This document shows positions 1-7,955 of a stretch of DNA of 15,714 nt, one piece after another. Below the pieces are notes generated by a model, which ran no database searches, was not told where the DNA came from, and worked only from the letters and a program-made list of their open reading frames with translations. The stretch comes from a virus (lineage: Duplodnaviria > Heunggongvirae > Uroviricota > Caudoviricetes), in the IMG/VR virus record IMGVR_UViG_2778261414_000014; one strand, given 5' to 3'. The position numbers and the translations under genes are program-made. Position 1 is the stretch's first letter, and each line of letters starts with the position of its first letter.

Positions 1-33
1 TAAAGCTAAGTTCGGACTGAAAGGAGCAAGTGT

Positions 34-336
34 ATGACGGGCAAAGAGGCAATTATTCATTACCTGGGGACGCATAAGAGCTTCTGTGCACAGGACGTTG
101 CCGCGGTAACAGGTGCAACCGTAACCAGCATAAATCAGGCTGCGGCTAAAATGGCGCGGGCAGGAATCCTGGTCGTTGATGGTAAGGTCTGGCGAACGGT
201 GTATTACCGGTTCGCTACCAGAGAAGAACGGGAAGGAAAGGTGAGCACGAATCTGATTTTTAAGGAGTGTCGCCAGAGTGCCGCGATGAAACGGGTATTG
301 AGGGTATATAAAAGAACATCAATGGGTACACAATGA
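34..336 (+). CDS. ren: Ren-like protein (lambda ren homolog, 100 aa)
   Basis: ATG at 34 preceded by SD AAGGAG (21-26); stop TGA 334-336. Translation MTGKEAIIHYLGTH...ATREEREGK matches my recollection of lambda Ren almost along its full length. Position at the end of a replication region and upstream of nin-type genes fits lambda order. Confidence 0.7.
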   Translation: MTGKEAIIHYLGTHKSFCAQDVAAVTGATVTSINQAAAKMARAGILVVDGKVWRTVYYRFATREEREGKVSTNLIFKECRQSAAMKRVLRVYKRTSMGTQ

Positions 337-403
337 TGAAACAGGTGAGTTGAGTTCAAACTGTAGTACAATTCTCTCCAGTTTGAACAGGAAAGAATAT
401 TCT

Positions 404-736
404 ATGAACCCTTATATTTATCTTGGTGGTGCAATACTTGCAGAGGTCATTGGTACAACCTTAATGAAGTTTTCAGAAGGTTTTACACGGTTATGGCCAT
501 CTGTTGGTACAATTATTTGTTATTGTGCATCATTCTGGTTATTAGCTCAGACGCTGGCTTATATTCCTACAGGGATTGCTTATGCTATCTGGTCAGGAGT
601 CGGTATTGTCCTGATTAGCTTACTATCATGGGGGTTTTTCGGCCAACGGCTGGACCTGCCAGCCGTTATAGGCATGATGTTGATTTGTGCCGGTGTGTTG
701 GTTATTAATTTATTGTCACGAAGCACACCACATTAA
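404..736 (+). CDS. emrE: Small multidrug resistance (SMR) efflux transporter EmrE, 110 aa
   Basis: Track ORF 350-736 contains MNPYIYLGGAILAEVIGTTLMKFSEGF...LLSRSTPH, essentially identical to E. coli EmrE as I recall it. Start placed at the internal ATG at 404 (110 aa, the EmrE length) rather than the upstream in-frame ATG at 350. Four hydrophobic segments with conserved Glu in TM1. EmrE is known to lie in the DLP12 prophage of E. coli K-12. Confidence 0.9.
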   Translation: MNPYIYLGGAILAEVIGTTLMKFSEGFTRLWPSVGTIICYCASFWLLAQTLAYIPTGIAYAIWSGVGIVLISLLSWGFFGQRLDLPAVIGMMLICAGVLVINLLSRSTPH

Positions 737-980
737 AAATAATTTCTTTTAAAAGACTGCAATATGGCGGTTCATATCTTTACATGGGCCGCTTTTGTTA
801 ATGTTTTTAGTTTTTGTGTATTCTTTTGTGCCTTCAAGATTATTGCGTAAGCAAATTGCAATACGATTATTGTTGTATATTCAAGATAATGTGATCTTAA
901 TTGTCTTTTTAAATAAAAATTAAACAAAAATTATATCCCACCACTAAGGTTTATAAAAGCATACGTTAGCAGGTGTCACC

Positions 981-2108
981 ATGAAAAAAGCCATAGCATA
1001 TATGCGATTTTCATCACCAGGTCAGATGTCTGGCGACTCATTAAACCGACAGAGAAGACTTATTGCTGAATGGTTAAAGGTAAATAGTGATTATTATCTT
1101 GATACCATAACATATGAAGATTTAGGATTAAGTGCATTCAAAGGAAAGCATGCACAATCAGGAGCTTTTTCGGAATTTTTAGATGCTATAGAGCATGGTT
1201 ATATATTGCCAGGAACTACATTGTTAGTTGAAAGTCTGGACAGACTTTCAAGAGAAAAAGTCGGTGAAGCGATTGAACGTCTGAAATTGATTTTGAATCA
1301 CGGTATTGATGTTATAACTCTTTGCGACAATACAGTCTATAATATTGACTCTTTGAATGAGCCATATTCATTAATAAAAGCCATACTTATAGCACAAAGG
1401 GCAAATGAAGAAAGCGAGATAAAGTCAAGTCGGGTTAAATTATCATGGAAGAAAAAACGGCAGGATGCACTGGAATCAGGTACGATTATGACGGCGTCTT
1501 GTCCGAGATGGCTCTCCTTAGATGACAAAAGAACGGCTTTTGTTCCAGACCCCGACAGGGTGAAAACTATTGAGCTAATTTTTAAACTCAGGATGGAAAG
1601 GCGCTCATTGAATGCAATAGCCAAGTATTTAAATGATCATGCTGTAAAGAATTTCTCAGGAAAAGAAAGTGCATGGGGACCTTCTGTAATTGAAAAATTA
1701 TTAGCGAATAAAGCTCTGATAGGTATATGCGTACCTTCATATCGTGCAAGAGGGAAAGGGATAAGTGAAATCGCTGGCTATTATCCCAGAGTCATATCAG
1801 ATGATTTGTTTTACGCTGTACAGGAAATTCGGTTGGCACCTTTTGGTATTAGCAATAGTAGCAAGAATCCTATGCTAATAAATCTACTTCGAACAGTTAT
1901 GAAGTGTGAGGCTTGTGGTAATACCATGATTGTTCATGCGGTATCTGGAAGTTTGCATGGCTATTATGTTTGTCCGATGAGAAGATTACATCGATGTGAC
2001 AGGCCATCAATAAAGAGAGATTTGGTTGATTATAATATCATTAATGAATTTTTAATTGTAGCAAAATTCAACCAGTTGAAAACAAGAAAGATGCTAATGA
2101 AACTTTAG
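981..2108 (+). pseudogene. ybcK: Large serine recombinase (YbcK-like), N-terminal 375 aa; reading frame broken by a frameshift near 2046-2057
   Basis: N-terminus AIAYMRFSSPGQ carries the resolvase-type catalytic Ser motif; a central recombinase region and a Cys-rich zinc-ribbon-like stretch (CEACGN...YYVCPMRRLHRCD) follow. The ORF stops at TAG 2106-2108 after a short tail, while a second frame stays open from 2048 to 2503 and encodes the coiled-coil-like C-terminal part expected in large serine recombinases. Confidence 0.7.
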
Positions 2109-2503
2109 AGTTAAAAATTATTGAGCTTCAGATGAAAATTAATAATTTAATCGTTGCATTGTCTGTCGCGCCTGAAGTTACCGCTATAGCAGAGAAAATA
2201 AGACTATTAGATAAGGAATTACGAAGAGCTTTGGTATCATTGAAAACTTTGAAGAGTAAAGGTGTAAATTCATTCAGTGATTTTTATGCTATTGACTTAA
2301 CCAGTAAAAATGGACGAGAGTTATGCCGTACACTTGCCTATAAAATATTCGAAAAAATCATAATTAATACGGATAATAAAACCTGTGATATCTATTTTAT
2401 GAATGGCATTGTTTTTAAACACTATCCTTTAATGAAAGTAATATCCGCCCAGCAGGCGATAAGTGCTCTCAAATATATGGTTGATGGTGAGGTTTATTTT
2501 TGA
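2048..2503 (+). pseudogene. ybcK: C-terminal portion of the same serine recombinase, in a shifted frame (track ORF 2132-2503)
   Basis: This frame is open from the stop at 2045-2047 and reads IFNCSKIQPVENKKDANETLELKIIELQMKINNLIVAL... The two pieces together total about 505 aa, the expected size of a large serine recombinase. Restoring one T in the run at 2048-2052 (GAATTTTTAATT) would make one continuous ORF. Confidence 0.55.
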
Positions 2504-2622
2504 GTAATAATCACTTTTTCAACCGTGCTATGGTATGAAAGTAAAGTAACTACTATGATATTAACTATCGAGCAAGAATATCCCCAGGCACTCAACAGGG
2601 CGCAGGTCAACGTGAATCGGTC

Positions 2623-2814
2623 ATGACACGACACCGATTTTGCGGAATCAATGTTGCTTATGAATACAACATCCCGCTTAGTACATGTTCAACACATCAG
2701 CAAATTTTGAACTGGGTGTGGCACTTAACTGAAAAAACATGGATGACACAAAATGTTACTCGTCGCTTCATTGAAGTAGCTTGTGGATATCACAAGCTAG
2801 ACTATCGCCAATGA
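2623..2814 (+). CDS. Hypothetical small protein (63 aa), possibly a gene remnant
   Basis: ORF only; no convincing RBS and no similarity I recognise. Lies in a ~500 bp AT-rich spacer between the recombinase and ybcN. Confidence 0.2.
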   Translation: MTRHRFCGINVAYEYNIPLSTCSTHQQILNWVWHLTEKTWMTQNVTRRFIEVACGYHKLDYRQ

Positions 2815-2857
2815 TATTCAATTTTTGATTTTTTAGTATCAACCTTCCATAATAATG

Positions 2858-2886
2858 TCACCGGAGCTTGAACAACTCCGGTGACT
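2858..2886. other. Perfect 10-bp inverted repeat (GTCACCGGAG / CTCCGGTGAC) with a 9-nt loop
   Basis: Seen directly in the sequence. Weak T-content downstream (CTTCTG), so a possible terminator or protein-binding site. Confidence 0.3.
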
Positions 2887-3004
2887 TCTGCGCATTTAAG
2901 GGGACTTAAATGCGACCACAATCTGAACTCCTTACCTTGTCACAGATGCAGAAATGCACCTGCGATGTCTTGCATCCAGCGTTTGATCTCTGCGGAGGTG
3001 AAGC

Positions 3005-3460
3005 GTGAACCTCCCACAAGATGGCATCAAATTACATCGCGGTAACTTCACCGCTGTCGGTCAGCAGATCCAGACTTATCTGGAAGACGGCAAATGCTTT
3101 CGCATGGTGCTTAAACCGTGGCGCGAGAGACGCAGTCTTTCCCAGAATGCACTCAGCCACATGTGGTACAGCGAAATCAGTGAATACCTCATCAGCAGGG
3201 GGAAATCGTTCGCTACTTCAGCATGGGTAAAAGATGCTCTCAAACACACATACCTCGGTTATGAAACCAAGGACCTGGTTGATGTCGTAACCGGCGAAAT
3301 CACTACTATCCAGTCGTTACGCCATACCTCCGATCTTGGTACCGGAGAGATGTATGTCTTCCTGTGTAAGGTTGAAGCCTGGGCGATGAATATTGGCTGC
3401 CACCTGACTATTCCACAGAGCTGCGAGTTCCAGCTGCTGCGTGACAAGCAGGAGGCGTAA
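3005..3460 (+). CDS. ybcN: NinB/Orf-family recombination protein (YbcN-like, 151 aa)
   Basis: GTG start at 3005 with SD GGAGG at 2993-2997. Size and position (first nin-region gene) correspond to lambda NinB/Orf and to E. coli DLP12 YbcN. Followed by ninE with an overlapping stop/start (TAATG). Confidence 0.8.
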
Positions 3461-3630
3461 TGGCTACACCGCTTATTCGTGTCATGAACGGACACATCTA
3501 CAAAGTACCAAATCGTCGTAAGCGTAAACCTGAGCTGAAGCCATCCGAAATACCAACACTGCTCGGATATACCGCCAGCCTGGTTGATAAAAAATGGTTG
3601 CGACTGGCAGCAAGGAGGAATCATGGCTGA
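3460..3630 (+). CDS. ninE: NinE-like protein (56 aa)
   Basis: Not in the supplied track because it is under 60 aa. ATG 3460 overlaps the ybcN stop. I translated it by hand: [56 protein letters not shown]. Basic small protein in the canonical ninE position. Confidence 0.65.
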   Translation: MATPLIRVMNGHIYKVPNRRKRKPELKPSEIPTLLGYTASLVDKKWLRLAARRNHG

Positions 3631-6643: not shown

Positions 6644-6668
6644 AGCTGCCCATATCGATGGGCAGCTC
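6643..6668. terminator. Near-perfect palindrome between convergent Rz and bor (putative bidirectional terminator)
   Basis: GAGCTGCCC (6643-6651) pairs with GGGCAGCTC (6660-6668); the 8-nt loop contains ATCGAT. No clean T-tract on either side, so terminator function is uncertain. Confidence 0.4.
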
Positions 6669-6674
6669 ATGCAA

Positions 6675-6968
6675 TTATTGTGAGCAATACACACGCGCTT
6701 CCAGCGGAGTATAAATGCCTAAAGTAATAAAACCGAGCAATCCATTTACGAATGTTTGCTGGGTTTCTGTTTTAACAACATTTTCTGCGCCGCCACAAAT
6801 TTTAGCTGCATCGACAGTTTTCTTCTGCCCAATTCCAGAGACGAAGAAATGGTGGGTGATGGTTTCCTTTGGTGTTACTGCTGCCGGTTTGTTTTGAACA
6901 GTAAACGTCTGTTGGGCACATCCTGTAATAAGCAGGGCCAGCGCAGTAGCGAGTAGCATTTTTTTCAT
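6675..6968 (-). CDS. bor: Bor outer-membrane lipoprotein (serum-resistance moron, 97 aa)
   Basis: Translation MKKMLLATALALLITGCAQQTFTVQNKPAAVTPKETITHHFFVSGIGQKK... has a signal peptide and lipobox (ITGC) and is near-identical to lambda Bor. Opposite strand to the lysis genes, as in lambda. Confidence 0.92.
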   Translation of the reverse strand: MKKMLLATALALLITGCAQQTFTVQNKPAAVTPKETITHHFFVSGIGQKKTVDAAKICGGAENVVKTETQQTFVNGLLGFITLGIYTPLEARVYCSQ

Positions 6969-7259: not shown

Positions 7260-7670
7260 TTAGCGTGGAAAGATTTGTGTAGTGTTCTGAATGCTCTCAG
7301 TAAATAGTAATGAATTATCAAAGGCATAGTAATATCTTTTATGTTCGTGGATATTTGTAACCCATCGGAAAACTCCTGCTTTAGCAAGATTTTCCCTGTA
7401 TTGCTGAAATGTGATTTCTCTTGATTTCAACCTATCATAGGACGTTTCTATAAGATGCGTATTTCTTGAGAATTTAACATTCACAACCTTTTTAAGTCCT
7501 TTTATTAACACAGTGTTATCGTTTTCTAACACAATGTGAATATTATCTGTGGCTAGATAGTAAATATAATGTGAGACATTGTGACGTTTTAGTTCAGAAT
7601 AAAACAATTCACAGTTTAAATCTTTTCGCACTTGATCGAATATTTCTTTAAAAATGGCAACCTGAGCCAT
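7260..7670 (-). CDS. ybcV: DUF1398-family small protein (YbcV/YdfO-like, 136 aa)
   Basis: Track ORF 7260-7793 extends to an upstream TTG. The ATG at 7670 has a good SD (GGAAGG, 8-nt spacer) and gives 136 aa. The C-terminal half (...[34 protein letters not shown]...[48 protein letters not shown]) matches my memory of E. coli YdfO/YbcV. AT-rich. Confidence 0.7.
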
Positions 7671-7955
7671 TGGTAAAACCTTCCATGTGATACGAGGGCG
7701 CGTAGTTTGCATTATCGTTTTTATCGTTTCAATCTGGTCTGACCTCTTTGTGTTTTGTTGATGATTTATGTCAAATATTAGGAATGTTTTCAATTAATAG
7801 TATTGGTTGCGTAACAAAGTGCGGTCCTGCTGGCATTCTGGAGGGAAATACAACCGACAGATGTATGTAAGGCCAACGTGCTCAAATCTTCATACAGAAA
7901 GATTTGAAGTAATATTTTAACCGCTAGATGAAGAGCAAGCGCATGGAGCGACAAA

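Follow-up and report, generated by a model that had tools for sequence, protein, structure and literature searches.

Does a serine recombinase gene that lies beside a drug-efflux gene in a lambdoid prophage mark a cassette that the recombinase once moved? The question is raised by a 15,714-nucleotide stretch of tailed-phage DNA (IMG/VR record IMGVR_UViG_2778261414_000014; hereafter, the window), in which emrE and ybcK lie between ren and ybcN, the gene at the position of ninB. An initial annotation proposed that an SMR efflux pump, a large serine recombinase and a 63-aa orphan ORF form an independently mobile cassette that entered the nin region through the recombinase. We consider it likely that the region is a mosaic accessory block of the DLP12/4A7 type, situated in a variable slot of a defective prophage at icd, and not a recombinase-driven cassette.

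Identity, composition and gene content

The window is 99.8% identical to E. coli O157:H7 SS52 and, on the evidence of its sequence, represents a defective lambdoid prophage that E. coli O157:H7 carries at icd. The prophage has a truncated O gene and its own integration genes: a lambda-type tyrosine Int (Arm-DNA-bind 6e-26, Phage_integrase 5e-24) and Xis adjoin icd. With these genes at icd, the recombinase of the block is not the integrase of the whole prophage, a possibility that the initial annotation had raised against its own proposal. Phage 4A7 likewise carries its own int and xis.

The initial annotation had described the DNA between ren and the gene in NinB position as AT-richer, and this was confirmed, with a G+C content of about 36% against about 50% in the flanks. 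The value is 0.362 over 301-2822 (the block spanning about 301-2824), compared with 0.513 in 1-300, 0.507 in ybcN and 0.498 from ninE to Q. Codon positions gave the same picture, in that third-position G+C was far lower in emrE (0.351) and ybcK (0.289) than in ren (0.515), ybcN (0.599) and rusA (0.603).

The block contains emrE, a YlcJ-like small ORF, ybcK and a 63-codon ORF (Table 1). The efflux pump, the recombinase and the 63-aa ORF had thus been listed correctly, but the YlcJ-like ORF (40 aa here vs 49 aa in K-12) was missing from the list, and the 63-aa ORF is no orphan. It corresponds to the 3' two-thirds of an 88-aa ORF that another prophage has after ren; it carries no PGAP annotation and is probably a remnant. 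A search of Rfam over 1-3500 gave no credible match. The emrE–ybcK block is an already-annotated accessory block of DLP12-type lambda-like prophages, and it appears in the annotation of hundreds of O157:H7 genomes as well as of the K-12 reference.

Table 1. Features from ren to ybcN in the window (all on the plus strand)
Feature	Position	Strand	Basis or remark
ren	34..336	+	ORF list; PGAP 'protein ren'; junction alignment; G+C of 301-336 = 0.333
emrE module common to fliE-side remnant	327..744	+	BLAST to L008, 91.9% over 327-744
emrE	404-736	+	110 aa, intact; Pfam PF00893 Multi_Drug_Res 2.1e-35; Glu14 present
emrE end and 3' UTR	731..793	+	15-nt CATTAAAAATAATTT at 731-745; hairpin then T-run at 766-793
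ylcJ-like small hydrophobic ORF	801..923	+	PGAP CDS; Pfam YlcJ 3.4e-20
ybcK, large serine recombinase pseudogene	981..2503	+	Resolvase, Recombinase and Zn_ribbon_recom domains
Post-ybcK remnants	2504..2603	+	BLAST; P22_AR_C Pfam match on the intact EC291 gene
63-codon ORF	2623..2814	+	homolog of 88-aa prophage ORF, 5'-truncated
Leader of ylcH-ybcN-ninE-ybcO-rusA operon	2825..2886	+	promoter scan; fold; X92588; kept in all variants
ylcH-like 33-codon ORF	2910-3008	+	PGAP
ybcN, NinB-position gene	3005-3460	+	NCBIfam PRK09741 272 bits; Pfam NinB 1.1e-4, just below cut-off

Slot junctions and modules

Alignment places the junctions of the slot at 301/302, within the 3' end of ren, and at 2824/2825, at the -35 element of the ybcN-operon promoter. 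Homology to phages with other cargo ends at 301/302, which assigns the final 12 codons of ren to the foreign DNA. The island had been drawn at 337-3004; foreign DNA runs from about 301/302 to 2824, and 2825-3004 is conserved backbone. That this DNA is accessory, foreign in composition and not universally present was borne out by close relatives, which hold other genes between the same junctions: an acyltransferase with a lipoprotein; DUF4145 with theta; the 88-aa ORF with P22AR-C and theta; and an inverse autotransporter with an esterase. Both junctions therefore also bound cargo without a recombinase. Presence in only some close relatives, a fixed slot and foreign composition (G+C 0.36 vs 0.50) are traits that the block has in common with accessory genes of the kind termed 'morons'. 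The island edges, which the initial annotation had suggested aligning for duplicated or att-like sequence, contained no att-like or flanking repeats beyond chance and are general slot junctions.

A perfect 10-bp inverted repeat reported near the right edge, at 2858-2886, is real, although its arms start one position earlier (2857-2866 and 2877-2886; RNA fold -21.2 kcal/mol, z = -3.95). It is not an island feature, since it belongs to the conserved backbone leader, where the promoter-like elements TTGATT (2825) and CATAAT (2853), with a spacing of 17, are also found. At this position, the 1996 record of phage 82 (X92588) annotates a -35, a -10 and a 'possible regulator-binding site'. As a candidate att site the repeat was rejected, because it occurs in the ybcN-operon leader of every variant, island-free phages included.

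Within the slot, the best-defined gene is emrE. Its product scores 121.6 bits in Pfam (cut-off 23.7) and 240 bits with NCBIfam SMR_efflux_EmrE (cut-off 226), and its four helices, length of about 110 aa, scores above curated thresholds and essential Glu14, which can be read in the translation (MNPYIYLGGAILAE), are those of EmrE in the SMR family. The leader contains a 13-nt inverted repeat (354-388), and a consensus promoter scan found no match to an emrE promoter in 337-403. The hairpin and T-run downstream look like a terminator. The 15-nt sequence at the end of emrE is kept in all lineages and occurs once in the window. Among 5426 complete E. coli genomes, 3693 (68%) carry emrE and only 1426 carry ybcK; about 2281 have emrE-ybcL-ybcM without ybcK, as a chromosomal remnant on the fliE side. 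EmrE in lambda phages has been described as accessory cargo (PMC6969025). The gene is phage-borne or phage-derived in both genomic contexts, and infectious lambda-like phages still carry it. A comparison of emrE alleles was uninformative as to donor vs recipient lineage, the alleles being all 3-6 nt apart. As the only intact cargo gene of the block, emrE is, judging from family membership, most likely a lysogenic-conversion gene that exports cationic drugs or biocides; its expression in the lysogen is something that we infer.

Downstream of ybcK the block becomes fragmentary. Positions 2504-2569 are common to 4A7, EC291 and Turner, and 2565-2603 is an internal fragment of a P22AR-C gene, what a 226-bp deletion relative to EC291 has left of it. 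The segment with the 63-aa ORF is confined to the O157 lineage (310 genomes).

These distributions bear directly on the proposal that the whole 2.5-2.7 kb block is one cassette put into the nin region by the serine recombinase. Foreign composition throughout and the position of a recombinase gene next to a resistance gene speak for it, but the components assort independently, emrE-ybcK being far more widely distributed than the O157-only segment, so that the distribution data already contradict it. Its edges are generic slot junctions, its inverted repeat is backbone, flanking repeats are absent, and the lone pair of filled and empty arrangements (see below) is an out-of-register join. We regard a single cassette as extremely improbable, and no trace was found of any past movement of the block by the recombinase.

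More likely, the block comprises modules that assort separately, namely emrE with its 3' UTR and terminator, ylcJ-ybcK, the P22AR-C fragment and the truncated ORF of the 88-aa family. Illegitimate and homologous recombination, the usual source of lambdoid mosaicism, would have brought them together, and no junction calls for a site-specific recombinase. The junctions look illegitimate: the right join of 4A7 truncates a decayed P22AR-C gene, and the window has the 226-bp deletion.

ybcK and the search for its sites

YbcK matches Resolvase (5.8e-19), Recombinase (1.4e-14) and Zn_ribbon_recom (9.6e-8) in Pfam. None of the catalytic residues R9, S11, Q15, D87, R88 and R91 varies among 17 or among 24 family members, and the zinc-ribbon cysteines C309, C312, C331 and C339 are invariant in the family alignment. 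In a structural model of the intact protein (pLDDT 79.8), helices 368-395 and 401-428 follow the zinc ribbon as a coiled coil, and Foldseek searches with full-length intact YbcK returned the SPbeta, PhiC31 and Bxb1 integrases (E 2e-18 to 5e-14). The predicted fold of intact alleles is that of a genuine large serine integrase. With a dN/dS of 0.075, intact ybcK is, by this measure, under strong purifying selection in the phage population. An enzyme so selected, with all catalytic and zinc-binding residues kept across genera, should have DNA substrates; none were found, a point against the mosaic reading. Among 35 papers that mention ybcK, none was found to report a recombination assay of YbcK (integration, excision or inversion).

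The copy in the window is broken. Relative to K-12 and phage 4A7, 4 bp (TTGC) are deleted between 2048 and 2049, so that the frame is lost after codon 356 and the gene is split into ORFs at 981-2108 (375 aa) and 2132-2503 (123 aa); PGAP labels it 'frameshifted'. The coiled coil and C-terminal domain are lost with it. It is found in about 21 of 1418 genomes, and EDL933 has the same prophage with an intact gene. With ybcK inactivated and no recognisable substrate sites adjacent, the block would be immobile here. A Rho/NusG-dependent terminator has been described upstream of ybcK (PMC4150792), and it is proposed that this terminator, in the ybcK leader, would silence the gene in K-12.

Relatives of YbcK with 40-60% identity occur in lambdoid nin regions of several genera, and those of other genera lie in nin regions without an SMR gene. 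They are solitary genes, usually below the surrounding G+C, in varied prophage and plasmid contexts. Such a distribution, together with an intact, selected gene of full integrase architecture, would suit a small self-mobile serine-integrase element consisting of ylcJ-ybcK alone, perhaps with P22AR-C as a helper, which inserts or once inserted downstream of emrE. Since insertion would then have been just 3' of emrE, emrE would be the target and not the cargo, and the window would hold a fossil in which the recombinase is broken and the far end is lost. Also in favour of such an element, 4A7-type phages and emrE-esterase phages (L110, L113, L116, L120; strain Rb-50) are set apart by a single discrete insertion or deletion of about 2.07 kb, which in 4A7 is a ylcJ-ybcK unit of 2073 bp with CATTAAAAATAATTT as a perfect 15-bp direct repeat at both of its ends. 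The 'empty' arrangement of emrE followed by the esterase was seen in four IMG/VR contigs and two genomes, and K-12 differs from the fliE-side remnant by a similar 2.08 kb.

These repeats were nevertheless rejected as attL, attR and attB. A sensitive alignment identified the sequence that borders the right-hand copy on its left as the decayed 5' part of a truncated P22AR-C gene, and because this gene is intact in EC291 and Turner and decayed in 4A7, the 4A7 right-hand join is a secondary truncation and not an element end. The lone filled/empty pair is accounted for by an illegitimate out-of-register join that truncated the P22AR-C gene. An earlier candidate, in which the flank of the right-hand repeat mimicked the emrE 3' end, was dropped, as it had rested on a low-scoring gapped alignment. 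The 15-bp repeat and 22 similar nt beyond it are the conserved emrE end and 3' UTR; K-12, EC291, Turner and O157 have no second copy; dyad symmetry in the putative sites was no higher than in shuffled sequence; and the approximately 2281 emrE ends at the fliE site are never occupied. Circle (attP) junctions were not found in IMG/VR or JGI metagenomes, a search of low power in which the positive control itself yielded only 6 attR-type contigs. Discrete recurring ends with matching empty sites, as a mobile cassette would have, were thus not found, and we judge a self-mobile ylcJ-ybcK element unlikely.

Other candidate ends were considered as well. A 13-nt repeat that flanks ylcJ-ybcK in K-12 is AT-rich and not kept in O157, and was taken as chance. 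A search for empty sites of YbcK relatives on Duffyella and Pantoea plasmids never found the two flanks joined to each other. At three unrelated loci, a diverged partial copy of a backbone sequence borders the recombinase segment. The partial gene duplicates in L101 (DUF1367) and L035 (P) may be target-restoring ends, but the L101 junction contains 40 nt of unrelated filler, and the Atlantibacter left flank differs.

A further explanation assigns YbcK to the phage: it would recombine sites that lie elsewhere, or it would capture new cargo directly 3' of ybcK, integron-like but with serine chemistry. In every lineage, variable cargo starts 9 to 66 bp past the ybcK stop codon, with at least five different continuations seen, and the recurrence of the gene in nin regions across genera accords with such a role. 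In both E. coli and Atlantibacter, ybcK is co-oriented with the early rightward operon and therefore would be read in lytic growth, and the gene is under selection although most lineages have no candidate second site. Against this, the slot is equally variable in ybcK-free phages, no repeated cassette-border sequence was seen, and the junctions examined are truncations and deletions. PADLOC defence models found no match in YbcK, YlcJ, EmrE, YbcL, YbcM or the 63-aa ORF. A phage or capture function of this kind appears very doubtful to us, although the cargo starts after ybcK, together with the backbone duplicates, could hint at a role of the enzyme in these joins. We find it quite improbable that the enzymes of this family, orphan large serine integrases of lambdoid nin regions in Enterobacterales, either mobilise themselves as gene-sized elements of about 2 kb or catalyse capture and exchange of downstream cargo.

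Under the mosaic reading that we prefer, the window itself is of little consequence, as the block is widely annotated and the recombinase is dead here. What matters more is that a biocide and drug efflux gene present in over two thirds of complete E. coli genomes is still found on infectious phages, and that about one in four E. coli genomes has YbcK. Depending on what its sites are, YbcK could prove to be a selfish passenger, a function in phage recombination or a new integrase of practical use; if true, cargo capture by YbcK would be a serine-recombinase counterpart of the integron within phage genomes.

Comparison with known systems

The closest known arrangement is emrE-ylcJ-ybcK-ybcL-ybcM of DLP12 in K-12, which lies in a like backbone (P, ren ... 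ylcH, ybcN, ninE, ybcO, rusA, ylcG, Q). Its emrE, ylcJ and ybcK are alike, with 97.9% DNA identity over window positions 123-2512. The two differ after ybcK, where DLP12 has ybcL-ybcM and the window has remnants of P22AR-C and of the 88-aa ORF; ybcK is intact in DLP12 and has the 4-bp deletion in the window; and DLP12 has intD, whereas the window prophage is at icd with a different Int. The viable phages 4A7, Lambda_4C10, Perceval, 1W and 3W (genus Bievrevirus) carry ren-emrE-ylcJ-ybcK in the same place with 96% identity, and phages of the 4A7 type integrate at icd with Int and Xis of the same type as the window prophage. In these functional phages, ybcK is intact and is followed by the decayed P22AR-C fragment and then by an esterase gene on the opposite strand. 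The order emrE-ylcJ-ybcK is also annotated in the viable phage Turner.

With the SPbeta SprA/YokA, PhiC31, Bxb1 and Listeria A118-type integrases, YbcK shares the order of catalytic serine domain, long helix E, recombinase domain, zinc ribbon and coiled coil (Foldseek E 2e-18 to 4e-10; SprA profile match E = 1e-5), at only 14-20% identity. Unlike these enzymes, it has an extra beta-rich C-terminal domain (458-507) and is not the integrase of its own phage, and no attP, attB or directionality factor was found for it. With the nin-region 'morons' of intestinal lambda phages, the block shares foreign composition, a site between conserved early genes, a terminator-like hairpin at the 3' side and patchy presence. 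It differs from them in that one slot holds a stack of several unrelated modules, one of them a recombinase gene and not a host-fitness gene.

The prophage and the limits of the foreign DNA

The DNA between ren and ybcN is a genuine, foreign, accessory island, and it represents an already-annotated composite region produced by ordinary lambdoid mosaicism. Escherichia coli O157:H7 strain SS52 matches window positions 1-3500 at 99.8% identity. In an annotated E. coli O157:H7 record, the lambdoid prophage adjoins icd and carries its own lambda-type tyrosine integrase and excisionase, and a Pfam search likewise assigned the integrase to the tyrosine type. The serine recombinase encoded in the island is thus distinct from the prophage integrase and does not serve in that role for the whole prophage. 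A truncated replication gene O comes directly after the excisionase gene, so the prophage is defective. O is followed by P, ren, emrE, a small ORF, a "frameshifted recombinase family protein", a 33-codon ORF and ybcN, and then by ninE, ybcO, rusA, ylcG, Q and the lysis and head genes. Directly upstream of the window (compared locus L001, 12551-13339), O lacks the N-terminus and lies directly against the excisionase gene, which indicates that the immunity and early-left regions have been deleted and that the prophage is not inducible by itself.

The AT-richness of the block was confirmed by G+C, which is 0.362 in 301-2822 as opposed to 0.513 in 1-300, 0.507 in ybcN and 0.498 from ninE to Q. At third codon positions, G+C falls to 0.351 in emrE and 0.289 in ybcK, versus 0.515-0.603 in ren, ybcN and rusA. 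Alignment to related phages and prophages with other cargo ends at 301/302, within the last 12 codons of ren, and resumes at 2824/2825. The 10-bp inverted repeat near the right edge was rejected as an island end, since it is retained in all variants with and without the island; it belongs to the backbone. It is predicted to fold well. In the phage 82 entry of 1996, the -35 and -10 elements are already marked at these same places, together with a "possible regulator-binding site", preceding orf33 and orf151 (ylcH and ybcN). A second AT-rich patch (G+C 0.31-0.32) is located between the lysis and packaging genes and is probably another accessory insert.

Positions of features in the window
Feature	Position	Remark
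13-nt inverted repeat (GTTCAAACTGTAG / CTCCAGTTTGAAC)	354-388	emrE leader
emrE	404-736	passes curated EmrE threshold
YlcJ-like small ORF	801-923	missed by the initial annotation
TTCAAGAT(T/A)AT, direct copies	826-843, 873-890	47 bp apart, upstream of ybcK
ybcK	981-2503	large serine recombinase
TTCAAGAT(T/A)AT, inverted copy	1093-1102	within first 40 codons of ybcK
4-bp deletion in ybcK	between 2048 and 2049	compared with K-12 and phage 4A7
Promoter-like site TTGATT-17-CATAAT	2825 (first base)	found by promoter scan
Perfect 10-bp inverted repeat	2857-2866 / 2877-2886	directly after promoter-like site
AT-rich patch	7351-7800	late region around ybcV/ybcW

Variable cargo and the search for recombination sites

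The same junctions enclose an acyltransferase and lipoprotein; DUF4145, theta and a hypothetical gene; an 88-aa ORF, P22AR-C and theta; or an inverse autotransporter and esterase. Where emrE-ylcJ-ybcK is present, it is followed by ybcL-ybcM in the defective K-12 prophage DLP12, by the esterase in the lambda-like phage 4A7, by P22AR-C and other ORFs in EC291 and phage Turner, and by remnants in the window. The slot varies whether or not the recombinase is present, and emrE, ybcK and the other parts assort independently. The initial annotation was therefore right about foreign accessory DNA, but its suggestion that emrE, the recombinase and a 63-aa ORF could be one cassette moved by that recombinase is not supported. 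Nor is the 63-codon ORF an orphan; it is a 5'-truncated homolog of the 88-aa ORF that another prophage has directly downstream of ren. The segment carrying it was found in 310 complete genomes, in effect the O157 lineage, and in no phage record.

Repeat searches of the window and K-12 returned just short AT-rich matches. In 4A7, a perfect 15-bp repeat, single-copy in the window, stands at both ends of a 2073-bp unit (ylcJ, ybcK and 280 bp); it covers the final codon of emrE and the stop after it. An "empty" arrangement, in which emrE leads directly into the esterase terminator, was found in four IMG/VR contigs and two complete genomes, and the flanks of filled and empty forms match at 59/60 and 60/60 positions. 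EC291 and Turner have an intact P22AR-C gene, and a more sensitive alignment showed that its first 55 codons make up the DNA to the left of the right-hand repeat in 4A7. The 4A7 copy is decayed: it is without a start codon, has a 5-nt gap and ends 7 nt before the repeat. With a truncated gene at the right end, the repeat was rejected as a pair of recombination sites. It and the 22 similar bases that follow are then no more than the conserved emrE end and 3' UTR. The most likely origin of the 4A7 arrangement is out-of-register recombination of an emrE-ybcK-P22AR-C phage with an emrE-esterase phage. Dyad symmetry in candidate sites did not exceed that of shuffles, and circle junctions, a test of little power, were not found in IMG/VR or JGI metagenomes.

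emrE in two genomic contexts

emrE is the only intact cargo of the island, and we infer that it is a conversion gene from family membership and published notes on EmrE in lambda phages. The emrE module (327-744) was detected in 3693 of 5426 complete genomes. In approximately 1400 it is at least 95% identical and has ren upstream; in approximately 2281 it is 90-95% identical and adjoins fliE as emrE-ybcL-ybcM, without ybcK. Most E. coli copies lie outside DLP12-type prophages. At the fliE-side locus of strain 613 (L008, 5001-7252), diverged scraps of the ybcN leader and Q 3' end are followed by IS1, and retention of these pieces identifies the locus as a prophage remnant. It looks like an old, widely fixed one, ~8-9% diverged from DLP12. 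The 13-nt inverted repeat of the emrE leader accompanies the module in both contexts and matched no Rfam family.

YbcK and its relatives

ybcK was detected in 1426 of the 5426 genomes. The putative recombinase, with Resolvase, Recombinase and zinc-ribbon domains, is inactivated here: the deletion splits the gene and cuts the protein after residue 356, with loss of the coiled coil and C-terminal domain. The deletion allele occurs in ~21 of 1418 genomes (the TW14359, EC4115, SS52 group), and EDL933 has the same prophage with ybcK intact. The TTCAAGAT(T/A)AT copies, whose pattern also occurs in K-12, may form a binding array for a regulator or a recombinase, or may have arisen by chance because the DNA is AT-rich.

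Full-length relatives (40-60% identity) usually have a lower G+C than their surroundings. Lambdoid prophages of Atlantibacter and of metagenomes carry them in nin regions that lack an SMR gene; a Pantoea prophage has one next to P, Yersinia has one lodged between two prophages, and plasmids of Pantoea and Duffyella carry them as stand-alone genes. At two loci, part of a backbone gene is found a second time, in diverged form, beside the recombinase segment. In a metagenomic lambdoid nin region (L101), the first 60 codons of a DUF1367 gene recur as an orphan copy ~150 bp upstream of a YbcK relative, and the full gene lies 1.1 kb downstream (6652-6853 and 9633-9831; 85% identical in DNA, 97% in protein). 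In a Candidatus Pantoea alvi prophage (L035, 7256-7693 and 10152-10859), an opposite-strand relative separates full P from an orphan copy of P residues 77-223. Unequal recombination of the 4A7 kind probably explains these duplicates. In Yersinia enterocolitica (L099, 3464-9232), a 56%-identical relative stands alone between the tail-fibre/autotransporter end of a lambdoid prophage and a P2-like ogr end, a context quite unlike the nin region. Several metagenome contigs with a 61%-identical relative (L125-L127) start just 300-400 bp upstream of the gene, which may reflect sequence polymorphism there in the sampled populations.

What intact YbcK does is the only aspect of this locus that may yet prove new. 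In K-12, ybcK is silenced by a Rho/NusG-dependent terminator in its leader (PMC4150792), and a tolerance effect upon overexpression is the sole phenotype in the literature (PMC7181518); our literature search found no recombination study of ybcK. The dN/dS between K-12 and 4A7 alleles is 0.075, and the catalytic Arg, Ser, Gln and Asp and four zinc-binding Cys are invariant across alignments of 17 and 24 family members. The sole solved relative found by sequence search was SPbeta SprA (E = 1e-5). The structure predicted for the intact E. coli allele (pLDDT 79.8) comprises a catalytic domain, long helix E, recombinase domain, zinc ribbon and a coiled coil made of two long helices, plus an additional beta domain at the C-terminus, and it matches over its full length the solved serine integrases of SPbeta, PhiC31, Bxb1 and Listeria.
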